NCBI RefSeq assembly: GCF_000757865.1
Contig: NZ_CP007754.1
Coordinates: forward strand, 30,001 to 62,000
Length of the DNA stretch: 32,000 bases
Reading direction: 5' to 3'
Origin: Prochlorococcus sp. MIT 0801
GTDB lineage: Bacteria; Cyanobacteriota; Cyanobacteriia; PCC-6307; Cyanobiaceae
Shown: positions 2,954-21,350 of the stretch, one piece after another
How the letters are laid out: every line of letters starts with the position of its first letter
How positions within the stretch are numbered: the stretch's first letter is position 1
The notes under the pieces: generated by a model
What the model was told of the DNA's origin: nothing
The model's database searches: none
The model's input: the letters and a program-made list of their open reading frames with translations, nothing else
Program-made: the position numbers and the translations under genes

Positions 2954-4108
2954 TTATTCTTTATTTAGTACTGAAATTGTTTTTGCAATTCCTTGACCAA
3001 TGGGGACGTTTAGTTTGCCCATTTTATCAAGAGTACTTTCTAAAGCTGATATGACACTAATAATATCTCTATTATTGACAAAACCCAAATGTCCAATTCT
3101 AAATATTTTTCCTTTTAAATGATCTTGACCTCCAGCAAGGAGTATGTCGAAATCATTTTTTAATGCTTTTCTTATACTTTCAGCGTCGATATTCTCAGGT
3201 TTAACAGCTGTTATCGCTGGACTTCCAAAATCTTCTTTTGTAAATAACTTCAAACCCATTGCTTTTATTCCTTCTTGAGTTGCTTTCTGATGAAGAGAAT
3301 GACGGGCAAATATATTATTTAACCCTTCTTTTTGCATCATTGTGAGTGAAGCTTCTAAAGCAAAGTATAAATTTATTGCAGGGGTAAAAGGATTGCTATT
3401 TTGATTAACTGTCTTTAAATATTGTTTTAGATCTAAATAAAATTTAGGTAAATCAGATTTATTATTTGCTTCCCATGCTCTTTTGCTCATAGCAACAAAG
3501 CTAAGGCCAGGTGGAATCATGTAACCTTTTTGAGAGCCTGAAGCTATTACATCTATTCCCCAGTCATCCATGGGGATGTTACATGCACCAAGACTTGTTA
3601 CACAATCAGCAATAGTAATAGCTTGACTATGATTTTTTACTTCATTATTAATCGATTTAAGATCATTAATCACTCCTGTTGAAGTTTCTGAGTGAGTTAA
3701 AATAACTGCTTTAATTTTTTTATTAGTGTCTTCTTCAAGAATCTTTTTGAATTGATTTGGATCAAGAGGAGTTCCCCAATCAGCTTTGACTACTTTTACA
3801 TTTAATCCATATGCTTTTGCTACTTTTACCCATCTTTCACCAAATTTTCCATTATCGCCGCAAATGACTTGATCACCTTTGCTTAATGTATTAATTATTC
3901 CTGCCTCCATTGCAGCTGTCCCACTTCCTGTAATTGTTAGGACGTCTGCAGTTGTTTGGTGAAGCCATTTGAGTTGCTCAGTTGTTTTTTGAACAATTTT
4001 TTGAAAATCTCCACTTCTGTGACCAATGGGGTGTTTACTCATGGAACTCAAAACATTCTCTGGAACCGGTGTCGGTCCAGGAATCATTAGATTGAGTTTG
4101 TCCTGCAT
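2954..4108 (-). CDS. Class-V PLP aminotransferase (serine-pyruvate / alanine-glyoxylate type; in cyanobacteria often annotated 'soluble hydrogenase small subunit')
   Basis: MIPGPTPVP N-terminus, the SGSQKGYMIPPG PLP-lysine motif and a 384-aa length. Confidence 0.9.
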   Translation of the reverse strand: MQDKLNLMIPGPTPVPENVLSSMSKHPIGHRSGDFQKIVQKTTEQLKWLHQTTADVLTITGSGTAAMEAGIINTLSKGDQVICGDNGKFGERWVKVAKAYGLNVKVVKADWGTPLDPNQFKKILEEDTNKKIKAVILTHSETSTGVINDLKSINNEVKNHSQAITIADCVTSLGACNIPMDDWGIDVIASGSQKGYMIPPGLSFVAMSKRAWEANNKSDLPKFYLDLKQYLKTVNQNSNPFTPAINLYFALEASLTMMQKEGLNNIFARHSLHQKATQEGIKAMGLKLFTKEDFGSPAITAVKPENIDAESIRKALKNDFDILLAGGQDHLKGKIFRIGHLGFVNNRDIISVISALESTLDKMGKLNVPIGQGIAKTISVLNKE

Positions 4109-4187
4109 TTACTTATTTAAATCTAGATTACTATTATTTTAAAAAATTATTTAGGGAATTTCCTTTATCGTCAGCTCTTCCAATGAT

Positions 4188-5333
4188 TTGAATCAATTTA
4201 CTCTTCCCGTTTGGGTCGTTGCGGCTGCAAAGTCAGCAACAAACACTCTTATTGGCAATAAATTTTTGGATAATGAGAGTATTGATTTACCAAATAAAGA
4301 AGAATCGATTACTGTACCTATTTCTTCTTCTGCTTTACTTGATAAGGGTGATAGATCTTTAGCAGTAACTCATTGTCAGTCTGGATTGGCTCTTGACATA
4401 ACAAGAGGAGTAGAAATCTGGGCATATGTTCAATTTAGTAAAACAAGTTTTCAATCTAAAAGGGTAGTTGAAAATGGTTTCCCCGATTGGCTTGATTTTC
4501 ATGCAGGTTTTGGAGTAGGTAAATTGCAAGGATCCGGTCAGCCATGTATATCTCAGTTTGCGCGTGATTTGCTTTGTATGAACCTATACCCCCTTTTGCC
4601 CAAGGGTAATTTAATTAAAGTCGAAATTATTTTACCTGAAGGGAAAGACCGTGCATTAAAGACAAGTAATGAAGCCTTTGGAGTTGTAGATGGATTGTCT
4701 CTCATTGGGACACAGGCGGAGGTTCAAATTAGTGCGTCTCCCGATCAGTTGAAAAACTGTAAAGAGATCTTGGAACACAAATGCTCTGAAGCAACATTTG
4801 ATGGATGTCTGACTTTTGTAATTGGTGAAAATGGAATGGACTTAGCAATGAAATATGGACTTCCAGCTAATCAAATTATTAAAACGGGGAATTGGTTAGG
4901 TCCTCTTCTTGTTGCTGCTGCAGAAAATGGAGTCAAGAAACTTTTATTATTTGGGTATCATGGAAAACTGATAAAACTGTCTGGTGGCGTTTTTCATACA
5001 CATCATCATCTTGCCGATGGAAGGATTGAAATTCTCACCTCACTTGCATTTAGAGAGGGCATCTCATTTGATTTGATTGAGTTAATAAGTAAATCAACAT
5101 CGGTGGAAAATGCTTTATTGACCCTTGAAGTTAGTAACCCAGAGGCTGTGTCGTTGATTTGGAGAAGGATGGCCAAAGAAATTGAAATTAAAAGCAGAAA
5201 CTATGTGAATAGATACTTGTCTTCATCGATGGAAATAGGATCTGTTTTATTTGATCGTAAAAGACAAATTCGTTGGGCTGGTTTTGACGGGTTAAAACAA
5301 ATTAATTCTTTTGGGTTAATTCTTAAGCGATAG
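4188..5333 (+). CDS. cbiD: Cobalt-precorrin-5B C1-methyltransferase CbiD
   Basis: GYHGKLIKLSGGVFHTHHHLADGRIEIL and the overall length match CbiD. The codon at 4188 is TTG, so the exact start is uncertain. Confidence 0.85.
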   Translation: MNQFTLPVWVVAAAKSATNTLIGNKFLDNESIDLPNKEESITVPISSSALLDKGDRSLAVTHCQSGLALDITRGVEIWAYVQFSKTSFQSKRVVENGFPDWLDFHAGFGVGKLQGSGQPCISQFARDLLCMNLYPLLPKGNLIKVEIILPEGKDRALKTSNEAFGVVDGLSLIGTQAEVQISASPDQLKNCKEILEHKCSEATFDGCLTFVIGENGMDLAMKYGLPANQIIKTGNWLGPLLVAAAENGVKKLLLFGYHGKLIKLSGGVFHTHHHLADGRIEILTSLAFREGISFDLIELISKSTSVENALLTLEVSNPEAVSLIWRRMAKEIEIKSRNYVNRYLSSSMEIGSVLFDRKRQIRWAGFDGLKQINSFGLILKR

Positions 5334-5399: not shown

Positions 5400-6986
5400 A
5401 TGGCTTCAATGATTTCAGCTGAAAAACGTAATCCAGCAATCGTAATTCTCGATTTTGGTTCTCAATATTCAGAATTAATTGCTCGAAGGGTTAGAGAGAC
5501 AGAGGTTTATTCATTAGTTATGAGTTACACAACATCTGCTGACCAATTACGTCATCTCAAGCCTAAGGGAATTATTTTAAGCGGAGGCCCTGGATCTGTT
5601 TACGAAGAAGGTGCTCCATATTGTGATCCAGAGATTTTTAATTTAGGGATTCCTGTTCTTGGTGTTTGTTATGGAATGCAATTAATGGTTCATTTGCTAG
5701 GAGGATCTGTAAAACCTGCTACTGGCAAAGCCGAATATGGAAAGGCTCCTTTAGAAGTTGATGATCCAACAGCGTTATTAACTAATGTTATAAGTGGATC
5801 AACAATGTGGATGAGTCATGCTGATTCAGTTCAGAAATTACCCAATGGATTTGTCAGATTAGCTCATACTTCAAATACTTTAGAGGCAGCTATTGCTTTG
5901 CACGATAAGAGTTTTTATGGAGTGCAATTTCATCCCGAAGTTGTTCATTCCACTCATGGAATGGTTTTAATAAGAAATTTCGTATATTTTATTTGCTCCT
6001 GTGAGCCAGACTGGACAACAAATTTATTTATAGATGAAGCTGTTTCTCAAGTAAAAGAACAGGTAGGCGATAAAAAAGTTTTATTGGCTCTATCTGGTGG
6101 AGTTGATTCATCAACTCTTGCATTTTTATTAAACAAAGCCATAGGACCTCAATTGACGTGCATGTTTATTGATCAAGGTTTTATGAGAAAAGGTGAGCCA
6201 GAATTTTTAATGTCTTTTTTTGATGAGAAGTTCAAAATTAATGTTGAATATATCAATGCCAGAGAAAGATTTATTTCAAAATTAAAAGGAGTAACTGATC
6301 CTGAGCAAAAGCGTAAAATCATAGGTAGAGAATTTATTCGGGTTTTTGAAGAAGAGAGTCTTCGATTGGGACCTTTTGATTACTTGGCTCAAGGTACGCT
6401 TTATCCAGATGTAATTGAAAGTTCTGGAACAAATATTGATCCAAAAACTGGCGAACGAATAGCGGTTAAAATCAAAAGTCATCACAATGTAGGAGGCTTA
6501 CCAAAAGATTTACAATTTAAATTGGTAGAGCCATTGAGACGTTTATTTAAAGATGAAGTCAGAAAAGTTGGTACATCACTGGGATTGCCTGATGAGATTG
6601 TTCGCAGACATCCATTCCCAGGTCCAGGATTGGCTATCAGAATTTTAGGAGAGGTTACTCATGAGAAACTAAATTGTTTAAGGAATGCAGATTTAATTGT
6701 GAGAGAGGAGGTTAATAATGCAGGCTTGTATAACCAGATTTGGCAGGCTTTTGCTGTCTTGTTGCCTGTGTATTCAGTTGGAGTAATGGGAGATCAAAGA
6801 ACTTATGAGTGGCCAGTTGTTGTTCGTTGTGTTTCTAGTGAGGATGGAATGACCGCTGATTGGTCTCGTTTACCGTATGAAGTCTTAGAGAAAATTTCTA
6901 ATCGAATAGTTAACGAAGTCGAGGGAGTTAATAGAGTTGTTTTGGATATAACAAGTAAACCACCAGGAACTATTGAGTGGGAGTAG
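5400..6986 (+). CDS. guaA: GMP synthase (glutamine-hydrolysing)
   Basis: GATase domain ([11 protein letters not shown]), ATP-PPase P-loop (SGGVDSS) and the canonical C-terminus ...PPGTIEWE-stop. Confidence 0.97.
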
Positions 6987-7024
6987 CGGGAACGTCTACT
7001 TTCTAGTGATAACTTGATTTATAT

Positions 7025-7046
7025 GGTTTTACGTAGGTTTTACGTG
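7025..7046 (+). repeat. Iteron pair GGTTTTACGTA GGTTTTACGTG (11-bp period)
   Basis: Direct reading. Confidence 0.9.
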
Positions 7047-7085
7047 AGAGGTATGATGAGGATATAACTAGGGTTTTGAAGTGTC

Positions 7086-7107
7086 AGTTTTACGTGGGTT
7101 TTACGTG
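7086..7107 (+). repeat. Iteron pair AGTTTTACGTG GGTTTTACGTG
   Basis: Direct reading. Confidence 0.9.
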
Positions 7108-7130
7108 GCACATTTTCACCGTCTCCATGA

Positions 7131-7160
7131 AGAAATCGTAGAAAGATGCTTTTCTCTACA
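7131..7160 (+). repeat. Boundary motif AGAAATCGTAGAAAGATGCTTTTCTCTACA (imperfect inverted repeat CGTAGA.A / T.TCTACA)
   Basis: One of six full copies. The others are at 9649-9674, 10486-10518, 12892-12925, 15914-15945 and 18295-18325. Half-sites CGATTTCTCTA(C/T) are at 9727-9738 and 18378-18389. Confidence 0.8.
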
Positions 7161-7284
7161 CAACCAAATTATTTTTATACTTGTGAAGAGGTCTGATTTT
7201 CGCTTTACAAACCCAGAATAGATACATTCCCCTGAAAGTATTAGGATGTTTCTCTTCAAACTTTGCCCAGTTTTGTAAGTTTGT
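7156..7284 (-). pseudogene. Fossil C-terminal tail of a methyltransferase-type TPR gene, in frame directly after the stop of the sulfotransferase gene
   Basis: My translation after the TAA at 7287-7285 gives TNLQNWAKFEEKHPNTFRGMYLFWVCKAKIRP... The genuine C-terminus of the 10557 gene is QTNLQNWAKFEEKHPNTFEGMYQFWVCKS-stop. The track ORF 7116..7331 covers this DNA in a different frame. Confidence 0.75.
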
Positions 7285-9240
7285 TTAGGAGGCGATGTCT
7301 TTGTATTTATCAGTTTGGGTAAGGATTTCAATCGCAGGTTTCAGCATATCTTTATAGTTCTTCCATCCACCAATTGATTTTGAATTGATTGGGGAACGAA
7401 CTTGAACACTACTTGCCGTAGATACTGAGCGTGGATTTAGATGCGGTGTTAAAAATGAATCTTGCCATTTCCACCCTAACCAAGAGATCAAGGATTTAAT
7501 TTCTTCCTTAGGATTGTTGACTAATGAGTCATAATTTAGGTCATATATTTTTGATTTAAATCTATTCTTATATTTTGTCATTAAGTCTTCTTGATCTAAA
7601 TAAACTCTTGTGCAATCAACCAAGCAAGAGGAATAATCATTTCCATTAGCAAAATGTGTTCTGTAAATTGAAAGAATATTATCTAAAGGATTTCTATAGC
7701 AGTGAATAATGTATGCGTTGGGTATATGACAATGAATAATACCTGCGTATTGGTAGTTGTATAACCATTTGTTGGTTGTGATATTCATTTCCGTCTTATT
7801 ATTTACTTTTTTCTTATATAAGTCAGCAAGATTTATATCTTGTTTAGACTTCTTATACTCAAGGAACGATTCCTCAAGAATATTAATTTCACCTAGATCA
7901 TATACATCATTGCTCATACTAAGAATTGATTCCAATAATGTAGAACCACATCTAGGCATTCCTACAATAAAAATACTCTGAGAAGAATTTCTTGATGCTT
8001 TTTTATTAATTTCTTTCTTATCAGACTCAATAAGTAATGCTTTAGATTTATTGAACCTTATTTTAGGTTTAGATGGGTTAATATCAAGTTTTAATTTATT
8101 CGCTAATTTAAGGTATCTAGAACTTTCCTTATAATTTTTTTCCTTATGCAAAATATTTGCTATTGCGAAGTAAATATCAACTTGATTCTTTTGTAATTTA
8201 TTTTTTAAAATATTTTTTGATAAGAGTTGATCCTGCCATATCTTATTCTCATCAGAATAGTTAATTAATGATAGTGAATAGTATGCTTTTGCGAAATCAG
8301 GATTAAGTTCAATTGCTTTGCGGTATGACAATTCTGCGTCTTGTAATTTACCAAGATCTCTCAATACATTCCCCAGATTGGAATGCGCCATTGCGAAATC
8401 AGGTTTGAGTGCAATTGCTTTGCGTTGAGACAATTCTGCATCTTGTAATTTGCCGAGATCTCTCAATACATTCCCCAGATTGGAATGCGCCATTGCGTAA
8501 TCAGGTTTGAGTGCAATTGCTTTGCGGTATGACAATTCTGCATCTTGTAATTTGCCAAGATCATTCAATAAGACTCCCAGATTGGAATGCGCCATTGCGT
8601 AATCAGGTTTGAGTGCAATTGCTTTGCGGTATGACAATTCTGCATCTTGTAATTTGCCAAGATCTCTCAATACATTCCCCAGATTGGAATGCGCCATTGC
8701 GAAATCAGGTTTGAGTGCAATTGCTTTGCGGTATGACAATTCTGCATCTTGTAATTTGCCAAGATCTCTCAATACATTCCCCAGATTGGAATGCGCCATT
8801 GCGTAATCAGGTTTGAGTGCAATTGCTTTGCGGTATGACAATTCTGCATCTTGTAATTTGCCAAGATCTCTCAATACATTCCCCAGATTGGAATGTGCCA
8901 TTACGAAATCAGGTTTGAGTGCAATTGCTTTGCGAGTAGATAATTCTGCTTCTTGTAATTTGCCAAGATCTTTTAATATGATTCCATAATTAGAAAAAAC
9001 TCGGTGATCATTAAAACCTTGATTAATAAAATATTGATAATATTTTATTGCTTCTGAAATATTTCCTTTTACATTAAACTGAATTGCTTGATTAATTATT
9101 TTTTCTTGAGAAAGTTTAGAAATAGTATTGATATTAATAGTAAGATTTTCTTTGATTTCTCCTGAAGCAAATGGAACTGGAAATGTTTTTACTTCAGTGA
9201 CTTTCTTCTTTTCTCCTCCTTCTTGAGTAGAACTATCCAT
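7285..9240 (-). CDS. TPR-repeat protein with a C-terminal sulfotransferase domain
   Basis: About 8 TPR units (AMAHSNLGNVLRDLGKLQDAELSYRKAIALKPDY). The PAPS 5'-phosphosulfate loop is IFIVGMPRCGSTLLESIL, and the C-terminal ...RSPINSKSIGGWKNY is typical of TPR-sulfotransferases. Starts with ATG at 9240. Confidence 0.85.
   Translation of the reverse strand: MDSSTQEGGEKKKVTEVKTFPVPFASGEIKENLTININTISKLSQEKIINQAIQFNVKGNISEAIKYYQYFINQGFNDHRVFSNYGIILKDLGKLQEAELSTRKAIALKPDFVMAHSNLGNVLRDLGKLQDAELSYRKAIALKPDYAMAHSNLGNVLRDLGKLQDAELSYRKAIALKPDFAMAHSNLGNVLRDLGKLQDAELSYRKAIALKPDYAMAHSNLGVLLNDLGKLQDAELSYRKAIALKPDYAMAHSNLGNVLRDLGKLQDAELSQRKAIALKPDFAMAHSNLGNVLRDLGKLQDAELSYRKAIELNPDFAKAYYSLSLINYSDENKIWQDQLLSKNILKNKLQKNQVDIYFAIANILHKEKNYKESSRYLKLANKLKLDINPSKPKIRFNKSKALLIESDKKEINKKASRNSSQSIFIVGMPRCGSTLLESILSMSNDVYDLGEINILEESFLEYKKSKQDINLADLYKKKVNNKTEMNITTNKWLYNYQYAGIIHCHIPNAYIIHCYRNPLDNILSIYRTHFANGNDYSSCLVDCTRVYLDQEDLMTKYKNRFKSKIYDLNYDSLVNNPKEEIKSLISWLGWKWQDSFLTPHLNPRSVSTASSVQVRSPINSKSIGGWKNYKDMLKPAIEILTQTDKYKDIAS
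8293..9006 (-). repeat. Tandem 102-bp (34-codon) TPR coding repeats: 7 units, six of them nearly identical at nucleotide level
   Basis: Visible periodicity. Adjacent units around 8609-8806 are almost base-for-base identical. Confidence 0.9.
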
Positions 9241-9419
9241 CTTCTCTTATCTTTTCTCTCTTTTGGTTTTTCCGATTTTACTACTAATTTCAATCCTGAT
9301 TAATTCTTTCTGAAATCATTTATCATTTATAGAGCGAGAATAAAAAGTAGGTCTGTATATTATTTCGCTACAAAAGCATCATTGAGTATATTTTTTCTTG
9401 TAATCCATTGGCACGACTG

Positions 9420-9441
9420 GGGTTTACGTGGGTTTTACGTG
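9420..9441 (+). repeat. Iteron pair GGGTTTACGTG GGTTTTACGTG
   Basis: Direct reading. It lies inside a 56-bp segment that is absent from the paralogous region at 18170-18190. Confidence 0.9.
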
Positions 9442-9503
9442 CTATGTATAAAGATGAAATCCGTTGGTATGACTGGGGTTTAGGGGTGCTCTTTTGCAAA
9501 GGA

Positions 9504-9520
9504 CTATTGAGTGGGAATAG
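9504..9520 (+). repeat. att-like copy of the guaA 3' end (CTATTGAGTGGGAATAG)
   Basis: Identical to the 13044 copy and one synonymous difference from guaA 6970-6986. It is followed by TTTAGGGCAGTCAAAC, a flank shared with the 18211 copy. Confidence 0.85.
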
Positions 9521-9558
9521 TTTAGGGCAGTCAAACCCAGTCCACCACTCAAAGTGCT

Positions 9559-9580
9559 TGTTCCACGTGAGTTCCACGTA
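9559..9580 (+). repeat. Iteron pair, CC variant: TGTTCCACGTG AGTTCCACGTA
   Basis: Direct reading. A single further copy, AGTTCCACGTG, is at 9619-9629. Confidence 0.85.
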
Positions 9581-9784
9581 GAAATTTAAGTGACAGAGTG
9601 ACAGGGATTTGAAGAGTAAGTTCCACGTGTCACCTTCTCTGTAAAGACATCGTAGATAGTTCATTTTCTCTACACCTATTATTTTTAGTCAAATTACGAT
9701 GGTTCTTAATTTTGAAAATCAATTGACGATTTCTCTACGGATTTAAAAAATTAATCAGACCCAAAAAGTACATTGCATGAAAAA

Positions 9785-9808
9785 GGGGGCGAGATTTTGG
9801 TCGCCCCC
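9785..9808 (-). terminator. GC-rich hairpin GGGGGCGA-loop-TCGCCCCC with a U-tract on the minus strand; it opens a ~120-nt conserved module (copy 1)
   Basis: 8-bp perfect stem. The minus-strand reading is followed by TTTTTTC. It is paralogous to 13328-13351 with a compensatory G:C to A:T change. Confidence 0.55.
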
Positions 9809-9956
9809 TTTGAGTTCAGCACTCATAATTCCAACTGAACTTTCCATCCGTACTAACCAACTTTGACCTACTGGAACGAAAGTGCTAGAACTCCTGATTT
9901 CTTTTTAATTCTTCTAAGATTCAAATTCAATCGTTAGAAGTACCTGATTAGGTCTT

Positions 9957-10148
9957 ATGGCAAAAACTGAAAATGATCTTGATATTTACTATGCAGTTGG
10001 GAATGCCAATACTTCTAGGCAAGAAACTGAGATCGGAGAAATTATTAAAAAACGAAATTCATTGGGATGGAAATTAGTCTCTACCAGTACTGCTGTGGTT
10101 GATACGTCTAATCAATTCTCTAATTTGTATCTTTTTTGGGAAAAATAA
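9957..10148 (+). CDS. Hypothetical small protein
   Basis: 63-aa ORF downstream of the hairpin module. The GWKLVS...LYLFWEK pattern is loosely like small alpha/beta DUF proteins. Size is within chance expectation. Confidence 0.3.
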   Translation: MAKTENDLDIYYAVGNANTSRQETEIGEIIKKRNSLGWKLVSTSTAVVDTSNQFSNLYLFWEK

Positions 10149-10295
10149 TATGAGTAAGGGAAAAGAGAAATTCAACGTGACGCAGGGTATGACTCTTTTG
10201 CTGCTAAAAAAACTTTCTTTGCCTGCAAACGTAGTTTTTCTAATGATTCTCTTTATTACTAACCCATCAAACAAGATTGGTTATGAGGATGAGTA

Positions 10296-10362
10296 GGCAC
10301 AACAAAACCTGACCTAAAGCAGTTCTTTTTGAAGATCAGTCGCAAGTGTTTCCTTGTTCCTT
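10296..10362 (-). ncRNA. Decayed Yfr2-like sRNA remnant
   Basis: The plus strand GGCACAACAAAACCTGACC...GATCAGTCGCAAGTGTTTCCTTGTTCC is colinear with 14821-14890. The terminator stem is degraded and the GUGAGGAG 5' motif is missing. Confidence 0.4.
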
Positions 10363-10556
10363 ATTGACTACTTTTTTAAGATGACTACTTATTCCTTTTC
10401 CAGTATTTCACTTCGTCCTCCTTTGAAAAGTCCATATGATAAAGAACAAAAGTTTATTTCTGCTCTATGCAACTATGCATATTTTCGTAGAGAAATCGTT
10501 GAAAGGTGTTTTTCTCTGAAATATTCAATATTTTTATACTTGTTAATTAGTCAGAT

Positions 10557-12737
10557 TTACGATTTACAAACCCAGAACTGATACATACCTTCGAAGGTAT
10601 TGGGATGTTTTTCTTCAAACTTTGCCCAGTTTTGTAAGTTCGTTTGTTTTTTATCTTCTGGGAAATATTGCTCATAGATCGATTTAATTTGTTTTTGAAG
10701 CAAGAATCCAAGAAACTTTAATTCATTAGATTTGAGAATTTCTTGTAGTTGCTTAATGTTGAATCTATGTTCCTGTGCATGAAAACAAAGATCACGGCAA
10801 GAAGAAAGTGTATAGAAATCAGAACTCTTTGTTAGAGAGTTTATTTCTGGTGTTTTTCCGGAAAAGATAGTTTCTCTAAAATTACGAATATGGTCCTCAT
10901 TTGTTTGAAGTTTTTTGCTGGCAATATAATTCCTTGCTTTAATAATATTTTGTCTTGCTAATTCGCTATATAAACCCAATTTAAGAAATCCATTAGTTTT
11001 TAAAACCCCTAATAATGCTTTCAAACCTTTTGAGGGTTCATCCATATGATGTAAAACCCCTGAACATAAAATGATATCAAATTTTTCCTCTAGTAAATTA
11101 ACTTCTAAGATATCCATTTGAATCAATTTAACATTATTGATTTCAAGTTCTTTTATTTTTCTTTGGGCATAAGAAAGACTAGACAAACTTAAATCTATGC
11201 CAGTAATCGTAGCATGGTTATAAATTTTCGCATGTAAAATCTGTTGACCTGTTCCACACCCAGCAATTAGAACTTTTAATTGACTATTTTCAGATTTGAA
11301 ATTGATAGAACTAGGTTTTATTTCATTATTTATTGCCTGTGTAATAGATATCTTTTGACTTTCTAAATTATTCCCATACCTCCATCTAGGATATGGATTT
11401 TTCTCATATTGTGATTTTACTTTTCGAGAAATATAATCATTTATTCTACCTAGTTTTTTTATATTCTTAGACAAGTCAATTTCTTCTAGAGGTTCTGATA
11501 TTTGTATGTTTATTAATTCTTTAAAACTTTGATTTGAAGAATTAAAAGATTTCAAAGATGGTATCCTATCCAGGAGTTTATATAAAGAAAAATAACAAGA
11601 TAAAATTGAAATATTTATCTCATTTAATTCATTATTTTGGCATCTTTTGATGATATTATTTAGAGATATATTTTCTTCTTCAGTTAATGAGAAAATATAT
11701 TCGTTAAGGAAGCATTGTTTTCCTAAAGTAATAATAAATTGTAATTCATAGTAATTTATTTCTTTTTTATTCTTTGCAATTTTAATGCATAAATACTTTC
11801 TTAAATTCGTTAGCAATTTCTCAAATCTAATATCCTGAAAAGTTATTTTTTTAAGGGCATTGATTATGACTTTATTATTAATTATTAATTCTATCTGGGA
11901 ACATTCTGAATCTAATTTTTCTAGTTTACTGATTATTTCATTGTTATATACATAGTTAAATGAGTTTATTAATTCTTTATGAGATATATCATTTCTTTCT
12001 AGTAGAAGATTTAATATAGTTTTCACTTTTGATTTGCTTAACTTTGACGTATCAAAATCTCTAAGAAATTCCGTTATGAAGGAATAAATATTAGGATATG
12101 TTGGATTAATTTTAATTATTTGCAAGTAAGAATCAAATGCTTCTTCTAACTTGCCAACATCTGTCAATATTATCCCCAGATTTAAATGTGCTTCTGCGAA
12201 ATTAGGATTCAGTTCAATTGCTTTGAGGTATGAGATTTCTGCGTCTTGTAATTTGCCAAGATCTGTCAATGTTATTCCCAGATTGTAATGTGCTTCTGCG
12301 AAATCAGGTTTAATATCAATTGCTTTTCGGTGGCATAATTCTGCATCTTTTAATTTGCCAAGATCTCTCAATGTTATTCCTAGATTGGAACGTGCTTCTG
12401 CGAAATCAGGTTTAATATCAATTGCTTTTCGGTGGCATAATTCCGCATCTTTTAATTTCCCAAGATCTCTCAATATCACTCCATAATTAGAAAAAACTTT
12501 GTGATCCTTATAACCTTGATTAATAAAAAGTTGATAATATTTTACCGCTTCTGAAACGTTTCCCTGTAAATGAAACTGGATTGCTTGATTAATGATTTGT
12601 TCTTTAGATGGTTTAGAAGAAGTATTTGTATTAATAGTAAGATTTTCTTTGATTTTTCCTAAATCAAATGCAACTGGGAATGTTTTCACCTCGGACATCT
12701 TCTTCTTTCCTTCATCTTCTTGACTAGAAAGATCCAT
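10557..12737 (-). CDS. TPR-repeat protein with a C-terminal class-I SAM-dependent methyltransferase domain
   Basis: 4 TPR units. Motif I is VLIAGCGTGQQ and motif II/III is DIILCSGVLHHMDEP. The track starts at a TTG at 12776. I prefer the ATG at 12737 (MDLSSQEDEGKKK...), which aligns with the paralog start MDSSTQEGGEKKK. Confidence 0.85.
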   Translation of the reverse strand: MDLSSQEDEGKKKMSEVKTFPVAFDLGKIKENLTINTNTSSKPSKEQIINQAIQFHLQGNVSEAVKYYQLFINQGYKDHKVFSNYGVILRDLGKLKDAELCHRKAIDIKPDFAEARSNLGITLRDLGKLKDAELCHRKAIDIKPDFAEAHYNLGITLTDLGKLQDAEISYLKAIELNPNFAEAHLNLGIILTDVGKLEEAFDSYLQIIKINPTYPNIYSFITEFLRDFDTSKLSKSKVKTILNLLLERNDISHKELINSFNYVYNNEIISKLEKLDSECSQIELIINNKVIINALKKITFQDIRFEKLLTNLRKYLCIKIAKNKKEINYYELQFIITLGKQCFLNEYIFSLTEEENISLNNIIKRCQNNELNEINISILSCYFSLYKLLDRIPSLKSFNSSNQSFKELINIQISEPLEEIDLSKNIKKLGRINDYISRKVKSQYEKNPYPRWRYGNNLESQKISITQAINNEIKPSSINFKSENSQLKVLIAGCGTGQQILHAKIYNHATITGIDLSLSSLSYAQRKIKELEINNVKLIQMDILEVNLLEEKFDIILCSGVLHHMDEPSKGLKALLGVLKTNGFLKLGLYSELARQNIIKARNYIASKKLQTNEDHIRNFRETIFSGKTPEINSLTKSSDFYTLSSCRDLCFHAQEHRFNIKQLQEILKSNELKFLGFLLQKQIKSIYEQYFPEDKKQTNLQNWAKFEEKHPNTFEGMYQFWVCKS
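12096..12503 (-). repeat. Tandem 102-bp TPR coding repeats (4 units)
   Basis: Periodicity in both DNA and protein (DLGKLKDAELCHRKAIDIKPDFAEA occurs twice, almost identically). Confidence 0.85.
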
Positions 12738-12970
12738 CTTCTCTCCTGGTTCTTTTGACTTTACTACTAATCTCAACTCTTATGACTTCTTTCTGAAATC
12801 ATATACCACCTATAGAGCAAGAATAAAAAGTAGATCTCTATATTATTTCTTTACGTATATGACCAGCTGACAAAAACATAGATGGCCACATAAATCGTAG
12901 AGAAATAATATACTACTTCTCTACATTTTATAGTTCCACACGAAAAAACCTTAAAAGTTATGGCATTTTC

Positions 12971-12992
12971 ATTTTCACACCATTTCCACACC
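12971..12992 (+). repeat. Iteron-like pair ATTTTCACACC ATTTCCACACC
   Basis: Direct reading; 11-bp period. A single copy, AGTTCCACACG, is at 12932-12942. Confidence 0.6.
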
Positions 12993-12995
12993 GCA

Positions 12996-13030
12996 TATTA
13001 AGTGGTGCAAACCATATGCACCACTTAATA
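12996..13030. repeat. Perfect 14-bp inverted repeat TATTAAGTGGTGCA-N7-TGCACCACTTAATA
   Basis: Direct reading. It lies 13 bp left of the att-like copy at 13044. Confidence 0.85.
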
Positions 13031-13098
13031 ATTTCCATAGTTGCTATTGAGTGGGAATAGCAGAAACGTCTACTTTCCAGTGATAATTTGATTTATAT

Positions 13099-13120
13099 GG
13101 TTTTACGTAGGTTTTACATG
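13099..13120 (+). repeat. Iteron pair GGTTTTACGTA GGTTTTACATG
   Basis: Direct reading. Confidence 0.9.
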
Positions 13121-13158
13121 AGAGGATAGAGAACCTATGGCTAGGTTTTGGATGGGTC

Positions 13159-13180
13159 TGTTTTACGTAGGCTTTACGTG
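13159..13180 (+). repeat. Iteron pair TGTTTTACGTA GGCTTTACGTG
   Basis: Direct reading. Confidence 0.9.
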
Positions 13181-13327
13181 CTATTTGTAAAGATGAACCC
13201 CTTTGTTTGGTGCTTTAATTCGATCCATTTTGACTCTCTTTGTCGGTTTAGTGATGGGGACAATACTAATACAAATGTACTATATTTATCTATTAGGTCA
13301 AGTCACTTATTTTGTTCCATTAAAGAA

Positions 13328-13351
13328 GGGAGCGAGATTTTGGTCGCTCCC
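13328..13351 (-). terminator. Hairpin GGGAGCGA-loop-TCGCTCCC, copy 2 of the conserved hairpin module
   Basis: 8-bp perfect stem with the same GATTTTGG loop as copy 1. The downstream ~100 nt partly align with 9809-9900. Confidence 0.5.
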
Positions 13352-13720
13352 TCTGAGTCAAGCACTCAACTGACTGAACTTAAATTTTCATCCTTTATTT
13401 ACTTTGACCCACAGAAGGTGCTGTGACTTCTAATTCATTAATTAAAAATCCAGATCAGGTAGAACATGAGAAAAAACTCCTGTTTAACCAACCACCCAAT
13501 AATCTTTGTGTTTTCTGAGAATGAGTTTGAGAAGATCGGGAATCATTCGTTTTACCTCAATATTTCAACTTTAAGTAATCAGGAACAAGGTGTGGAAGTG
13601 TTCCAAGTGAGATTAAAAAGACAGAAAACCAAAGAAAGATCGATGAAAGAGTATTCGACCCATTGGATCTGAAACTACGTGTTGTTTGCATAATTAGACC
13701 TCCTGTTAGTTCAATGTTTT

Positions 13721-13906
13721 TTAGTAGTCCATTGAGCAGTTGCCAAACTGCAAGCATTCATTCTCATAATCGACCTCATCAAAATCAGCTTCATAATTCG
13801 AAACCAGATCGCACCAATCGTTCCCTTGCATCGGAACTCCACAAGATTTCGAGAATGTTTCTTTTACGTCTTCGATTGCATGTTTAAAAGGATTACCGCA
13901 TGCCAT
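13721..13906 (-). CDS. Hypothetical small acidic Cys-containing protein (61 aa)
   Basis: A strong Shine-Dalgarno site (AGGAGG) ends 6 nt upstream of the ATG (minus-strand reading CTATTAGGAGGTCAAACCATG). The protein is MACGNPFKHAIEDV...ECLQFGNCSMDY. Confidence 0.5.
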   Translation of the reverse strand: MACGNPFKHAIEDVKETFSKSCGVPMQGNDWCDLVSNYEADFDEVDYENECLQFGNCSMDY

Positions 13907-14361
13907 GGTTTGACCTCCTAATAGTGCCTTGATTTATATCTACTCCTCCTAATAAAAAATATCTATAGGACAAAAACCCTAAAGTATTAACTCTGATTAC
14001 CCTACAAAGAAAAAACCCTGCAACTAATCAGGGGTTTGGGTTGTTCCGACCATTGCAGAGACCGCACGAAAGGTGACTCTGTTCACATCAGGAGGTGTGA
14101 GATGTCTCCTTAGAGTCAATGTACATTTCCCTTTTTTTAATATCTTCGAGAGTGCTATTACTCTTAATTTATATTCAATACCACTAATCAAAAATATCTA
14201 TGCAGAGAATCCAAATGTAGAAATACCTTGGTGTTCTCACCCCTATGAATTTCCATTTAATAGGAGTAGAACAAGATCAGGAGTCAAAGCACTTCAATTT
14301 CTGGGGTGATGGACTCGAAGGGGAGAAATACATGCCCCCTTACTTCATTTGAGGTATCTCT

Positions 14362-14532
14362 ATGACTAGAAAAAGAGACAAGATTTGGACAGCAATCATT
14401 GCAACTAGACAATGGTTCACCAAACTTTTTACTAGTGAGGCAGATGCTTTAGTTGATAACTTCGGAAATAATCCACCACCAGAGATAGGACCTCAATCTT
14501 ATTCGGGAGATATTCACGATAAAGGAGACTGA
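14362..14532 (+). CDS. Hypothetical 56-aa protein (not in the ORF track because it is under 60 aa)
   Basis: My translation is MTRKRDKIWTAIIATRQWFTKLFTSEADALVDNFGNNPPPEIGPQSYSGDIHDKGD. GAGG ends 7 nt upstream of the ATG, and the hairpin at 14560-14593 follows. Confidence 0.3.
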   Translation: MTRKRDKIWTAIIATRQWFTKLFTSEADALVDNFGNNPPPEIGPQSYSGDIHDKGD

Positions 14533-14559
14533 TTGAATTCATTTAAATTGCATTAAGAA

Positions 14560-14634
14560 AGGGACCCTGCTGCTTCAGCGACCTTGAGTCCCTCTCTTCA
14601 TTGACAGAACGAATTTTGGTAAGGAGTTGTTCTG
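14560..14634. ncRNA. Hairpin plus stem-loop module, variant copy: stem CAGAAC/GTTCTG with loop GGTAAGGAGTT (plus strand) or AACTCCTTACC (minus strand)
   Basis: Colinear with 15011-15083 and 21351-21421. The strand of expression is undetermined. Confidence 0.4.
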
Positions 14635-14824
14635 CTTTTCCTTTTCTAATCAATTTCACAAAGGTTCTGCATCCGAAAAAATTCCTAATTAGATATCGTC
14701 CTCACTGTTTCCGAATGGGTTGTATCTGATATCAAAAATCAAAACTACTGCTGTGCTTAAAAGCAGTAATCCAAAAACAACTTGGGGAGGTGGAAATATC
14801 ATTAGACCACTCTAGAAAAGGCAC

Positions 14825-14920
14825 AAAAAAACCGCCCAGTTCTGTTAGGGCGGTTTCTTTGTGAGATCAGGCGCAAGTGTTTCCTTGTTTCCACTGCGGA
14901 GGATCTCAACTCCTCACAAA
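14825..14920 (-). ncRNA. Yfr2-family-like sRNA
   Basis: Minus-strand reading: a TAAGTT -10-like box, then UGUGAGGAGUUGAGAUCCUCCGCAGUGGAAACAAGGAAACACUUGCGCCUGAUCUCAC, then the terminator AACCGCCC-N10-GGGCGGUUUUUUU. Length is about 95 nt. The GUGAGGAGU seed and GGAAACA-rich loop match my recollection of Yfr2-5. Confidence 0.6.
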
Positions 14921-15010
14921 ATAAACTTAATCAACATGACTCTTAGAAGGAATCCTGAGTATTTGAGTTCTTGAACTGTCACATATGACAATTCTTGTAC
15001 ATAAGGTATT

Positions 15011-15126
15011 AAAAAAGCACCCCACTTAAGCGAAGTTGAGTGCCTTTTTATAACAGAACTATTGTGTGAGGAGTTATTCTGTTATTTCATTTCTACTCCT
15101 GCATGCACCTTTTGTCACTACTAAAA
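15011..15126. ncRNA. Hairpin plus stem-loop module: stem AACAGAA/TTCTGTT with loop carrying TGTGTGAGGAGTT (plus strand) or AACTCCTCACACA (minus strand)
   Basis: A bidirectional-looking terminator hairpin at 15017-15043 is flanked by A- and T-runs. A conserved TTTTGTCACTACTAAAA box is at 15110-15126. Read on the minus strand, it contains the exact ACUCCUCACAC motif known from Yfr1. Confidence 0.45.
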
Positions 15127-15269
15127 AGATAAACTGATGAGAACCTACAAAATAGGAATAAGAACAAAGGATCCAAGAATAAAAAGTGGCGACCTTGCAC
15201 GAGTTCTATCAATCATTAGATCCTGAATCAAATAAACTTTCTGAGTGGATTTGTGAAAAATAGAAGATT

Positions 15270-15632
15270 ATGGATGAAACTTGGTTAAAAGAACTCAATC
15301 AAAGAAATATTGAGTTGGAAGGAGAAGATAGGGCGAAATGGGATGGTGCAACTGTCTCTGTTTCCTTCTCAGTTTTAAACAAATTAAGTCAGGCAGAACA
15401 AGGGAAATTTGAGATTACTGAATTCAAAAGAGCAACGAATGAAATTGAGCATTGGGCACGAGTAGAAGAAATATGCGATTTCTTTGGAGTTGTAGACCCT
15501 GATCTAGCAGGAGATGTCTATGTCAGAAAGTTCAAAAACTTAACTGTAGATGAAGAGAGTAAATGGATGGATTTAAAAGATATTAATGACGAGATGCCTG
15601 AGGGTTTTGGCGTAAAAATCGATCGGAGTTAA
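15270..15632 (+). CDS. Hypothetical acidic protein (120 aa)
   Basis: An ORF of a length unlikely by chance at this GC content. It is D/E-rich and followed by an imperfect hairpin at 15633-15658. Confidence 0.5.
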   Translation: MDETWLKELNQRNIELEGEDRAKWDGATVSVSFSVLNKLSQAEQGKFEITEFKRATNEIEHWARVEEICDFFGVVDPDLAGDVYVRKFKNLTVDEESKWMDLKDINDEMPEGFGVKIDRS

Positions 15633-15686
15633 GGGAAGGCAAATAATTGTTTGCTCCCTTGTCAATGAAAATATTTGCTAATTGAC

Positions 15687-15708
15687 GGTTCCACGTAAGG
15701 TCCATGTG
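15687..15708 (+). repeat. Iteron pair, decayed CC variant: GGTTCCACGTA AGGTCCATGTG
   Basis: Direct reading. Confidence 0.7.
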
Positions 15709-15764
15709 GTAAAACAGGGGAGCAAATCCCTATATACCACTAAATAATTCAAGTAGGTGCTGTG

Positions 15765-15781
15765 CTATTGGGTAGGAATAA
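15765..15781 (+). repeat. Decayed att-like copy (CTATTGGGTAGGAATAA)
   Basis: 14 of 17 bases match the guaA end. It sits in the same position relative to the downstream degenerate iterons and the CGTAGAAAG motif as the other copies. Confidence 0.55.
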
Positions 15782-15913
15782 TACTGACTACTAAAACGTA
15801 GTTATAGACTTAAAATATATATTCCCCGTGAGTTCTCTGTGAACGTGAACTGAGGAAGTGACAAGGGTTTTCAAGTGCTCTGTTACTCGTGAGACTTTGT
15901 CACCTACTCTGCA

Positions 15914-15945
15914 GAGAAATCGTAGAAAGATGGTTTTTCTCTACA
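15914..15945 (+). repeat. Boundary motif GAGAAATCGTAGAAAGATGGTTTTTCTCTACA
   Basis: Direct reading. It holds the same position relative to the TPR-gene 3' tail as the copies at 7131 and 10486. Confidence 0.8.
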
Positions 15946-16084: not shown

Positions 16085-18007
16085 TTAAATTCCTATTAAT
16101 TTCACCGCAACTTGCTTCGTCATATAGGAGATCGCCAAAACTTCATAACTTAAATTATTATTAGAGCAAAATTCATTGAGTGCTTTATATTCATCCTGCT
16201 CCCAATTTTTATTAATAATAAACTCATCAAATATTAAAATTGTATCTTTATCTATGACAGACTTTGAATAGTTCAAGGCACAAATAGTAGAAGAATATAG
16301 ATCGGCATCAAAATTGATTAGTGATGCGATAGGTCTAGGTTTGGAATAAAAAGTTGGAAGTGTTTCTTCAAATTTACCTGCTATAAATGTTCCGCCATCA
16401 ATGTTGGGAATGACTCCATCTGCTGAATAAAATCCTTGTTTCTCTTCATGCCAATCTTCTGGTAAGCCTTGAAAAGTATCAAATCCATAACCTTTTTTGA
16501 AGGTATTAATTAAGTACTGAAAGGATTCACCTCGCCAAACACCAAACTCATAGAAAGGGCGATCTGTTTTGCTTTTATTAATCATACTGTCAAATAATGC
16601 CCATCTATGAAAAAACAATTCAGGTAACTTTGGTAAAGTAGAAACCCATTTTAGGGAACGGATTGTAGGATGATCTTTATAAATTGATTGTATAAGATTA
16701 TCAAATAATGATTGATAACCTTGATGTAATTTTAGACCACTTAGAGAGAGTTTTGCTTCTAAATGATTTTCATCTATTTTCAAGCATTGATTAATCCTTT
16801 CTTCTGCTTCCTCAATAGTATTGGCTAATCCATATAAATTCCAAGCAGCTTCAGCGAAATCAGGTTTAAGTTGAATTGCTTTGCGAAATGACAATTCTGC
16901 TTCTTGTAATTTACCAAGATCACTCAATATGATGCCCAGATTGGAATGCGCCTCTGCGTAATCAGGATTAATTTCAATTGCTTTGCGATATGAGATTTCT
17001 GCTTCTTGTAATTTGCCAATATTATTTAATATGTTTCCCATATTTAGATGCGCCATTGCGAAATCAGGTTTAAGTTGAATTGCTTTGCGAAATGACGATT
17101 CTGCTTCTTGCAATTTGCCAAGATCTTTCAATATGTTTCCTAGATTGGAATGCGCCTCTGCGAAATCAGGATTAATTTCAATTGCTTTGCGATATGAGAT
17201 TTCTGCTTCTTGGAATTTGCAAAGATCTCTCGAAATGGTTCCCAGATTGTAATGCGCCTCTGCGAAATCAGGATTAATTTCAATTGCTTTGCGAAATGAC
17301 AATTCTGCTTCTTGCAATTTGCCAAGATCTCTCGAAATGGTTCCCAGATTGTAATGCGCCTCTGCGAAATCAGGATTAATTTCAATTGCTTTGCGAAATG
17401 ACAATTCTGCTTCTTGCAATTTGCCAAGATCTTTCAATATGTTTCCTAGATTGGAATGCGCCTCTGCGAAATCAGGATTAATTTCAATTGCTTTGCGATA
17501 TGAGATTTCTGCTTCTTGCAATTTGCCAAGATCTTTCAATATGACTCCCAGATTGGAATGCGCCATAGCGCAATTAGGATTAATTTCAATTGCTTTACGA
17601 GTAGATAATTCTGCTTCTTGTAATTTGCCAACATTTTTTAATATGTCTCCCAAATTTACATACGCATCTCTGTACTCAGGATTAATTTCAATTGCTTTGC
17701 GAAATGACAATTCTGCTTCTTGTAATTTGCCTAGAGTTTTTAATATGACTCCATAATTACAAAAAACTTTGTGGTGAGAGAAACCTTCATTAATGAAATA
17801 TTGATAATATTTTTCTGCTTCTGAAATGTTTCCTTGTGAATGAAACTTAAATGCTTGATTTATTATTTGTTCTTTAGAAGGTTTCGAAGGCGTGTTAGTG
17901 GAAATAGAGATATTCTCTTTAATTTCTCCTAAACTAAATGGAACTGGGAATGTTGTTATTTCAGTGACTTTTTTTTTAACCTCTTTTATTGGACCGGATT
18001 CTTCCAC
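16085..18007 (-). CDS. TPR-repeat protein with a C-terminal TylF/macrocin-O-methyltransferase-like domain
   Basis: 9 TPR units. The C-terminal FYEFGVWRGESF...GFDTFQGLPEDW...LINFDADLYSSTICALN...ILIFDEF matches the TylF-family pattern. The start codon at 18007 is GTG, at the position aligned with the ATG of the paralogs. Confidence 0.8.
   Translation of the reverse strand: MEESGPIKEVKKKVTEITTFPVPFSLGEIKENISISTNTPSKPSKEQIINQAFKFHSQGNISEAEKYYQYFINEGFSHHKVFCNYGVILKTLGKLQEAELSFRKAIEINPEYRDAYVNLGDILKNVGKLQEAELSTRKAIEINPNCAMAHSNLGVILKDLGKLQEAEISYRKAIEINPDFAEAHSNLGNILKDLGKLQEAELSFRKAIEINPDFAEAHYNLGTISRDLGKLQEAELSFRKAIEINPDFAEAHYNLGTISRDLCKFQEAEISYRKAIEINPDFAEAHSNLGNILKDLGKLQEAESSFRKAIQLKPDFAMAHLNMGNILNNIGKLQEAEISYRKAIEINPDYAEAHSNLGIILSDLGKLQEAELSFRKAIQLKPDFAEAAWNLYGLANTIEEAEERINQCLKIDENHLEAKLSLSGLKLHQGYQSLFDNLIQSIYKDHPTIRSLKWVSTLPKLPELFFHRWALFDSMINKSKTDRPFYEFGVWRGESFQYLINTFKKGYGFDTFQGLPEDWHEEKQGFYSADGVIPNIDGGTFIAGKFEETLPTFYSKPRPIASLINFDADLYSSTICALNYSKSVIDKDTILIFDEFIINKNWEQDEYKALNEFCSNNNLSYEVLAISYMTKQVAVKLIGI
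16856..17773 (-). repeat. Tandem 102-bp TPR coding repeats (9 units, several nearly identical)
   Basis: Periodicity. For example, AEAHYNLGTISRDL.K.QEAE.S.RKAIEINPDF occurs twice in succession. Confidence 0.9.
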
Positions 18008-18210: not shown

Positions 18211-18226
18211 TTTTGAGAGGGTATAG
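18211..18226 (+). repeat. Decayed att-like copy (TTTTGAGAGGGTATAG)
   Basis: 13 of 16 bases match. The surrounding ~250 bp (18121-18390) is colinear with 9361-9740, including the identical TTTAGGGCAGTCAAAC flank. Confidence 0.6.
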
Positions 18227-18294
18227 TTTAGGGCAGTCAAACGTTGTCCACTACTCAAAATATACTTCCACTTCCACTTGTCACCGTTTCTATT

Positions 18295-18325
18295 GAGAAA
18301 TCGTAGAAAGTCGTTTTTCTCTACA
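18295..18325 (+). repeat. Boundary motif GAGAAATCGTAGAAAGTCGTTTTTCTCTACA
   Basis: Direct reading. Confidence 0.8.
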
Positions 18326-18539
18326 TCTACTATTTTTAGTCAAATCTATAGGGATCTAAATTTGGAACATTAATTGACGATTTCTCTATATATTTTTCTG
18401 TATTCACTACTTAAAAAGCACAAAAAAACACCCCTTTGGATGCTCTCTTAGCACAGAACAATGTATTCTAATCAAGGATAAATTATGGCGAGGCTTCAAA
18501 AAAGACGTGATCATTTAAATAAGAGATAGTTAGGGTCCA

Positions 18540-20540: not shown

Positions 20541-20802
20541 TAATGATATTCAAATCAAAAACGGAAAATAATTTACTGAATATGAAGCTATAGATTTAAT
20601 GGTGTCATTGAGTGGAACTGACGCAAATTCAGAAAAGGAAATGGAGATGTTGCCATAGCTCTCTATCGCAGAAAGATTGAAAGGAGTATTTGGACGAATA
20701 CTGGATAAACTATGAAATAAAAAATGGGATAAAAAATAAGTGCATCACATATCTGTTATCAGTTGATTAGTGGAATAACCCTTTAAATTTGTTGATTGAA
20801 AA

Positions 20803-21258: not shown

Positions 21259-21350
21259 AAAATTTATTTGCACATTTGATGAACAAACTCAAATATTGGC
21301 AGGTTGCTTTATTGATTGTCATATGTCAGCATTCGTAAAAGTAGTCATTA

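Follow-up and report, generated by a model that had tools for sequence, protein, structure and literature searches.

The stretch of DNA analyzed here (the window) comprises 32,000 nucleotides of the Prochlorococcus sp. MIT 0801 genome (contig NZ_CP007754.1, positions 30,001 to 62,000) and has a G+C content of 34%. It contains cbiD (4188-5333) and the GMP synthase gene guaA (5400..6986, + strand; Pfam GMP_synt_C and GATase), whose last 18 nt form a chromosomal attachment core. The gene order around guaA is the same in Synechococcus WH 8101 and in the single-cell amplified genome (SAG) contig QCVK01000008 (49% G+C). An open reading frame (ORF) of 203 aa, another of 124 aa, and a PBP2-type transpeptidase gene (23173-25008) lie 16 kb past guaA, and because guaA has the same flanking genes in relatives, the 15 kb between guaA and the 203-aa ORF can be regarded as an insertion-rich island. 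Within this island, copies of the guaA 3' end are accompanied by short direct repeats, which are almost certainly attachment-site arm elements of integrative elements that target guaA.

The repeat unit is 11 bp long. Exact matches to RGTTYYACGTR occur nine times in the window, all on the + strand, against 0.03 expected from shuffled sequence, and the shorter TTYYACGTR occurs 13 times against 1.3 expected, with 11 of these 13 on the + strand within 7025-15708. Most units are paired at an offset of exactly 11 bp, at 7025/7036, 7086/7097, 9420/9431, 9559/9570, 13099/13110, and 13159/13170; a further pair at 15687/15698 has a degenerate second unit (AGGTCCATGTG). CACAC variants, likewise on the + strand, comprise a pair at 12971/12982 and an unpaired unit at 12932. 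An earlier note made from this sequence had listed the same sites as + strand motifs in 11-bp pairs; all of them were recovered in that orientation, and the pairing holds for most, the units at 9619 (+) and 12932 being single.

The guaA 3' end (ACTATTGAGTGGGARTAG) is found at 6969, 9503, and 13043, and decayed copies are present at 15764, 18211, and 20604, the first two of these with decayed units beside them. The array therefore reaches about 20.6 kb and does not stop at 15708, where the earlier note had ended it. Read straight from the sequence, the core is a dyad, CTATT-GAGTGGG-ARTAG. Its flank bases are A..T at 9503 and G..C at 13043, so that both copies retain a 6-bp inverted repeat with a 7-bp spacer.

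These cores divide the island into cassettes, each with a P' arm to the right of its first core and a P arm to the left of the next core; we refer to the different unit sequences as flavors. Cassette 1 (6969-9503) starts at core copy A (ACTATTGAGTGGGAGTAG; 6969..6986, +; repeat family D14), which is the attL core. Its P' arm consists of two GGTTTTACGTR pairs (7025-7046 and 7086-7107, +) with a 39-nt spacer, followed by a conserved element termed H (TCTCC..GAAGAAATCGTAGAAAG..TTTTCTCTAC; 7118..7161, +; repeat families D5 and D8). The cargo is a TPR-repeat protein with a sulfotransferase domain (7285..9240, - strand). A P-arm pair of TTTACGT flavor (9420..9441, +), whose second unit starts 74 nt before the ATTGAG start of core copy B, completes the cassette, so that TTTTACGT is found at both ends. 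Core copy B (ACTATTGAGTGGGAATAG; 9503..9520, +; family D14) is the junction with cassette 2 (9503-13043), which has a P' arm (9559..9629, +) made of a TTCCACGT pair (9559-9580) and a single unit (9619-9629), an H element (9632..9673, +), a second H-like element (10478-10519), and a gene for a TPR-repeat protein with a methyltransferase domain (10557..12776, -). Its left arm is of CACAC type (12932..12992, +), with a single unit at 12932-12942 and a pair at 12971-12992.

Beyond core copy C (GCTATTGAGTGGGAATAGC; 13043..13060, +; families D6 and D14), where the changed flank bases keep the 6-bp dyad, lies the arm of a remnant cassette 3 (13099..13180, +; families D4 and D7), with a TTTTACGT pair at 13099-13120 and a second pair at 13159-13180. 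The second pair precedes P-arm-type sequence and not H, which suggests an internal deletion. A TTCCACGT P-arm pair with a decayed second unit (15687..15708, +) follows, its second unit starting 66 nt before decayed core D (GCTATTGGGTAGGAATAA; 15764..15781, +). Cassette 4 retains a decayed P' arm (15822..15944, +; family D5) with units at 15822-15841 and 15878-15891 and an H element at 15902-15944, and its cargo is a TPR gene (16085-18007, -). A decayed junction (18211..18326, +) combines core E (18211-18226), decayed CC units (18264-18280), and an H element (18283-18326); the most distal core-like copy (GTCATTGAGTGGAACTGA; 20604..20621, +) comes after an ion-channel cargo gene (19716-20540). 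The cargo of the window thus comprises three minus-strand TPR-repeat proteins, small ORFs, and an ion channel. The window is best read as a tandem array of at least five decayed, integrase-less cassettes with the flavors TTTTACGT, TTCCACGT, and CACAC.

We scanned 185,579 species genomes, in 8-kb stretches (tiles), with the pair pattern GTTYYACGTRRGTTYYACGT. Matches were found in 110 tiles, of which 90 had Prochlorococcus in their title and another was clearly a contig of Prochlorococcus within a mislabeled metagenome-assembled genome; the pair is thus nearly restricted to this genus. The layout was examined in 93 low-GC genome tiles (all but two from Prochlorococcus) and 75 low-GC metagenome contigs. 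Of the 127 pair matches in the low-GC tiles, 123 were at a fixed distance from a core copy (53-54 or 114-124 nt after it or 71-105 nt before it) or adjoined H, and in the complete genomes of MIT 9107 and MIT 9302 every match fell within the one tile that bears guaA. This genome-wide count, which the earlier note had called for, did not place the motif broadly at promoters of unrelated core genes. To the right of the core, it is 54 nt, start to start, to the pair, 50 nt to the second pair, and 34 nt to H, some P' arms being shorter with one pair; to the left, the second unit of a pair starts 63-94 nt before the core.

The restriction to guaA ends bears on the least probable of the readings that we considered, in which the pairs are promoter operators or -35-like parts (a transcription factor box) and their link with recombination is incidental. 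The TT(T/C)ACG of each unit matches TTGACA at 4 of 6 positions, a TAnnnT hexamer resembling a -10 element comes after the pair in 29 of 67 distinct P arms versus 7 of 100 P' arms, and one promoter-like match was flagged at 7028. However, promoter-like matches in the region are no more common than in shuffled sequence (38 versus 36.4), the boxes are not at unrelated core-gene promoters, and varied flavors on a conserved layout are unlike a host regulator. A host box of the OmpR/PhoB direct-repeat type was also rejected, as the matches are confined to guaA-end copies and do not stand upstream of several unrelated genes; NtcA, Pho-box, and RpaB HLR1 boxes do not fit in spacing or sequence. A promoter role of the P arm may nevertheless coexist with arm binding. 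The P-arm TAnnnT points across the core and in a circular form would thus read toward the integrase gene (int). The -10-like hexamer after the P-arm pair is seen at 9442-9452 in the window and at loci L010-L240.

In the consensus of H, CCGTCTCYnnRGAGAAATCGTAkAAAG-N5-TTTTCTCTAC, the first part forms a 12-bp palindrome, TCTCYnnRGAGA, that shows compensating variants among loci. The H sequence is the same across all arm flavors, and in intact relatives it is located just upstream of the int start codon, where it may serve as an int operator or promoter or as a site for an accessory protein. An alternative, which we consider highly unlikely, is that the pairs are replication-origin iterons and that an element-encoded Rep protein nicks or unwinds the DNA at the H hairpin. 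Some intact elements do encode a weak REP_ORF2-G2P-like protein, the second P' pair is 34 nt from the hairpin-like H, and unrelated phage contigs have similar 11-mers beside DnaA boxes. In contrast, the units stand on both sides of a recombination core with their spacing locked to it, a 5.6-kb circular relative (described below) has no recognizable Rep, and the window has no rep gene and no DnaA box near any of the sites. Because the H sequence is the same across flavors, H does not covary with the units, which also counts against iterons.

The flavors allow the elements to be delimited. Those scored automatically were TTTTACGT, TTTCACGT, TTCCACGT, and TTACACGT, and those found by eye were GCTCACCC, TCACACGT, TCACACA, TTTCACCY, TTTTACTT, TTCCCCGT, TTTGTTGCG, and ACTACCCCGT. 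Flavor was the same for the arm to the right of a core and the arm to the left of the following core in 41 of 43 cases, or 33 of 35 when cassettes of <300 bp, in which a single pair makes up both arms, were left out, whereas the two arms around a single core agreed in only 8 of 27 cases. Since flavors match within cassettes and not across junctions, each core-to-core cassette corresponds to one integrated element, and each junction is then P of element n, core, and P' of element n+1. The earlier note had proposed just such a P-core-P' arrangement where two elements abut, and this is borne out. Its two flavors on opposite sides of the core do belong to different elements, but the flavors number at least 12 and not two.

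Cassettes are also found as units of insertion. Loci L057 and L072 have a common cassette, 97.7% identical, with its start exactly at the core; this cassette directly follows guaA in L072, and in L057 a 1,572-bp cassette with GCTCACCC units intervenes, an insertion polymorphism bounded by cores. Other cassette families recur beside different neighbors. Mini-cassettes of 138-157 bp (core-54-pair-85-core) without cargo are present at six loci, several of them SAG tiles (L011, L020, L035, L037, L079, and L095), and are probably deletions between same-flavor P' and P pairs. The cargo of other arrays includes restriction-modification genes, helicases, asparagine synthase, and acyltransferases.

Metagenome contigs that share this layout encode a tyrosine recombinase (PF00589; 452-476 aa, ~455 aa) that begins 30-120 nt after H. 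Such an integrase gene directly follows P' and H at nine places: L197, L143, L176, L139, WH 8101, QCVK01000008, L258, L260, and L262. The order in L197 is guaA-core-P'-H-int, then a Rep-like ORF, a resolvase, and P-core-B', and the metagenome contig L143 has a related integrase. L176 (34% G+C) has TTTTACGT, the main flavor of the window, on both arms, and its P' arm preceding the integrase gene is 77% identical over 138 nt to that of cassette 1; L139 likewise carries an integrase. In Synechococcus WH 8101 the integrase gene comes right after guaA, and TTTCACCY arms are found at both ends of a 9.1-kb element. The integrase also follows guaA in the SAG contigs QCVK01000008 and L258. The guaA gene of L258 has 89% DNA identity to that of the window, which places this contig, as judged from guaA, in the low-light Prochlorococcus clade of the window; the attL arm before its integrase, P0036, aligns at 72% identity over 195 nt with the cassette 2 arm at 9503-9680. 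The TCACACA flavor is the arm repeat of integrase P0119. Intact relatives also encode a resolvase (serine recombinase) and small ORFs, and some encode a Rep-like ORF.

The integrase family comprises 129 clusters, and Arg, Lys, Arg, and Tyr are invariant in motifs typical of the catalytic set; we take these to be the catalytic residues. A free circular form of the element is represented by the contigs with integrase P0112, which are ~5.6-6.2 kb long and circularly permuted in gene order. Two independent terminal overlaps yield the same 5,607-bp circle, whose intergenic region runs from a P pair through the core and two P' pairs to H and int, as expected of an attP site with the proposed P-core-P' order. 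A complete P-core-P' site was seen in this circle and in L176, L253, L254, L260, and L262. Integrase P0017 was seen both integrated after guaA (attL) and in P-core-P' form (attP), and the part common to the two is ATTGAGTGGGAATAG plus the P' side. The earlier note had supposed that the protein binding the motif is not encoded in the window; a strong candidate is this ~455-aa recombinase family, which adjoins the arms in relatives and is absent from the window. Among the three binders that it had proposed, an integrase fits best and a replication initiator worst.

In the 93 Prochlorococcus tiles, a catalytic-motif regular expression, Pfam searches of 57 cargo representatives, and tblastn recovered no integrase apart from a remnant in L063. 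This SAG tile, and also L149, contain an 80-aa N-terminal integrase remnant after P' and H, which shows integrase decay in progress. No member of the integrase family was found in a scan of IMG/VR. The flanking 203-aa, 124-aa, and 242-aa ORFs and an HL-clade Cas4-like nuclease were considered as recombinases and found no support.

These features closely resemble the attachment sites of phages λ (P1/P2 and P'1-3) and L5 (P1/P2 and P4/P5 pairs), in which both arms bear short same-orientation repeats, often in adjacent pairs offset by about one helical turn. As in arm-type sites, the guaA units are short, repeated on both attP arms away from the core, and fixed in position, and inverted half-sites surround an overlap (GAGTGGG) of the expected 6-8 bp that is common to element and chromosomal sites. 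In λ and L5, too, the core is a dyad with an overlap of ~7 bp shared with a chromosomal site at the 3' end of a gene, and int adjoins attP; their integrases have an extra N-terminal domain, as does the predicted structure of the guaA integrase. In contrast, at ~455 aa the guaA integrase exceeds these in length and its sequence does not significantly match any known arm-binding domain, the guaA elements have a conserved H between P' and int, and at least 12 repeat specificities occur on one scaffold at one target. The units are direct, and not inverted, between the ends, and a 15-18-nt core is duplicated, which led us to reject Tn7-like end repeats.

Tandem direct repeats about one helical turn apart also typify Xis-type sites, as known in general from λ and L5, and the pairs could therefore bind an excisionase (directionality factor) or another small element protein and not the integrase. 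The intact elements have several unannotated ORFs of 52-80 aa adjoining int, and flavor would track any protein that the element encodes. However, the pairs are on both arms at fixed distances, whereas Xis sites are usually on one arm; the small ORFs tested match no known excisionase or helix-turn-helix family in Pfam or PHROGs, and they vary among elements with a common layout. We regard binding by such a protein as unlikely.

The full reading, that the units are arm-type sites bound by the N-terminal domain of the integrase, is probable, with the binding step inferred from sequence and predicted structure. Unit sequences could be assigned to thirteen full-length integrases and two N-terminal remnants, twelve different ones in all, each integrase lineage having a repeat of its own, and wherever both arms are visible, elements with an integrase carry the identical unit on both. 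In the AlphaFold model of P0112 (mean predicted local distance difference test [pLDDT] score of 79), an N-terminal domain of four β-strands and a helix (residues 11-89; pLDDT of about 85) precedes the helical core-binding and catalytic domains, and the best Foldseek match of the model is full-length λ integrase (1z1b). Among eleven full-length integrases, the N-terminal 95 residues were 13.2 identity points more diverged than the rest when flavors differed, and the excess was 5.1 points when flavors agreed (permutation P = 0.03, uncorrected for phylogeny). A blind prediction that "DKQ" integrases pair with TTTCACC units held in 2 of 2 cases.

Several points weigh against this reading. The Foldseek match to λ integrase is a whole alignment that does not resolve individual domains, hhalign gave a probability of 0.8% (not significant) for the integrase N-domain against the λ arm-binding domain, and a profile search of PDB sequences returned nothing. 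A single-residue code, in which a strand-3 His in place of Arg specifies TTTTAC units, failed its blind test, the units being quite different. The serine recombinase, the small ORFs, or the Rep-like protein would covary with flavor equally well, and the cassette counts and integrase pairs share phylogeny and are not independent. Finally, the window itself contains no integrase, so that any activity here is putative.

A mechanism consistent with these patterns can be proposed by analogy with λ and L5. An intact element would exist as a circle of roughly 5.6-9 kb, in whose attP ~75 nt separate the P pair from the core, 43 nt the core from the first P' pair, and 39 nt the two P' pairs, with H and int following, and would recombine with the last ~15 nt of guaA (CTATT-GAGTGGG-ARTAG). 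The central and catalytic domains of the recombinase would bind the core and its N-terminal domain the arm units, as in phage λ or L5, and strands would be exchanged inside GAGTGGG. Integration would restore the guaA stop codon and yield attL (guaA-core-P') and attR (P-core). A newcomer would enter at the guaA-proximal core and displace older elements outward, and these may then shed int while retaining cargo and arms. Further movement of the window cassettes would need a flavor-matched integrase in trans.

We infer that cassettes without an integrase can still move. A broader possibility, which we put forward tentatively and consider rather less likely than not to hold, is that the guaA array is a system of cassette exchange served in trans, in which integrase-less cassettes whose flavor-specific arms are intact are excised, circularized, and reintegrated when a matching small circular element, for instance the 5.6-kb circle, enters the cell. 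The arm specificities would then act as addresses that decide which cassettes an integrase moves. If this were true, Prochlorococcus would have an integron-like route for swapping single defense and cell surface genes. Integron arrays are similar in that small, mostly single-gene cassettes are arrayed at one site and enter at the proximal end. In contrast to integrons, no IntI is located beside the guaA array, the sites are direct repeats around a dyad core and not attC hairpins, and every cassette bears λ-type arms and descends from an element that formerly encoded an integrase.

Cis-mobilizable elements and islands derived from integrative and conjugative elements accrete in tandem, for example, at the fda 3' end in Streptococcus thermophilus. 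Like the guaA cassettes, cis-mobilizable elements lack an integrase, keep attL and attR in tandem at the 3' end of a housekeeping gene, and need the integrase of an incoming element. The guaA cassettes differ in having no conjugation genes, in being much smaller, and in carrying several arm specificities side by side.

Prochlorococcus has, to our knowledge, no plasmids, conjugation, natural competence, or common prophages, and with these transfer routes lacking, the gain and loss of island genes has been a long-standing question. The guaA 3' end adds a hotspot in a protein-coding gene to the tRNA integration sites already described, and its precise sequence layout can now be used to recognize elements and their remnants. 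A likely recombinase family has been identified, together with a free circular form that is present in many ocean metagenomes. As the cargo consists of TPR-domain transferases, restriction-modification genes, helicases, and other defense or cell surface genes, the guaA site probably contributes to the diversity of phage resistance. One scaffold with at least 12 specificities also offers a natural test case for the evolution of arm recognition by integrases.

The most similar known systems in Prochlorococcus are tycheposons, small cargo-carrying integrative elements that target seven tRNA/tmRNA genes (bioRxiv 10.1101/2020.12.28.424599). Tycheposons and "cryptic" integrase elements resemble the guaA elements in that one end carries an inward-facing tyrosine recombinase and that a small serine recombinase and, optionally, replication genes are present, and in tycheposons, too, stacked insertions push older ones into the island, which is built from degenerate remnants (bioRxiv 10.1101/2020.12.28.424599). 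Their hallmark genes are present in the intact guaA relatives (int by P', a resolvase, and sometimes a Rep-like ORF) but not in the window, and the target differs, being the guaA 3' end and not a tRNA or tmRNA gene. The main text and those supplements of the tycheposon preprint that were examined make no mention of a guaA target or of arm repeats (bioRxiv 10.1101/2020.12.28.424599), and in the literature searched we found no description of a guaA hotspot or of arm sites in picocyanobacteria. In the supplementary expression table of the same preprint, MIT0604_00038 to _00046, located directly downstream of guaA, are induced by mitomycin C, with the highest log2 fold change (6.35) for MIT0604_00040, and one gene of this set is annotated as a replicative DNA helicase (bioRxiv 10.1101/2020.12.28.424599).

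Viral sequences were also searched. BLAST of the junctions against 50,697 phage records gave no relevant match. The IMG/VR pair scan returned eight unrelated contigs, which we judged to be nonhomologous; in several of them, AAGTTYCACGT repeats adjoin DnaA boxes and terminase genes. In unrelated, higher-GC phage contigs, two to four tandem AAGTTYCACGT units stand beside clustered DnaA boxes (TTATCCACA), at L002 6774-6794, L003 1429-1449, L005 9529-9571, L006 376-396, L007 839-859, and L008 1665-1707, and a terminase module adjoins the units in both contigs whose ORFs were checked (L002 and L005). Such clusters are probably an origin or packaging region unconnected to guaA. An IMG/VR scan for a core plus a unit returned one Firmicute-like prophage junction, probably by chance. 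A high-GC prophage-like junction at a guaA stop codon (L120, 2214-2271) has a single GGTTTTACGTGG ~41 nt downstream, with an ATTGAG-to-unit spacing of 61 nt versus 54 nt in Prochlorococcus; this may be chance.

Further repeats were observed in the island. The sequence TTCTCTAC occurs nine times in the window against 0.91 expected, all copies except one being within attachment modules (7152, 9666, 9731, 12917, 15937, and 18317 on the + strand; 10487 and 12897 on the - strand). At many loci, further copies lie ~55-75 nt outside the P-arm pairs, and TTCTCTAC appears to be a second family of att-region repeats. The three cargo TPR genes contain 102-bp (34-aa TPR) tandem repeats with up to 95% identity (8233-9144, 12036-12539, and 16836-17762) and have common 3' ends and 5' leaders (families D2 and D3). 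A G+C-rich hairpin repeat (GGGGGCGA..TCGCCCCC; 87% identity), which looks like a terminator, is found at 9780-9825 and 13323-13368, in two different cassettes.

A tRNA scan of the window found no tRNA gene, and an Rfam scan at gathering thresholds found only two Cyano-1 (Yfr2-family) small RNAs, neither of them at a motif site. Their genes are located inside the island (14859-14923 and 21198-21262, both on the - strand), as is a partial third copy (10319-10358), and each copy is near AACTCCTCA-type sequence. In the SAG contig that carries integrase P0036 (L258), a second, inverted guaA 5' fragment is present at 3751-4383 (-) and may be an amplification chimera.

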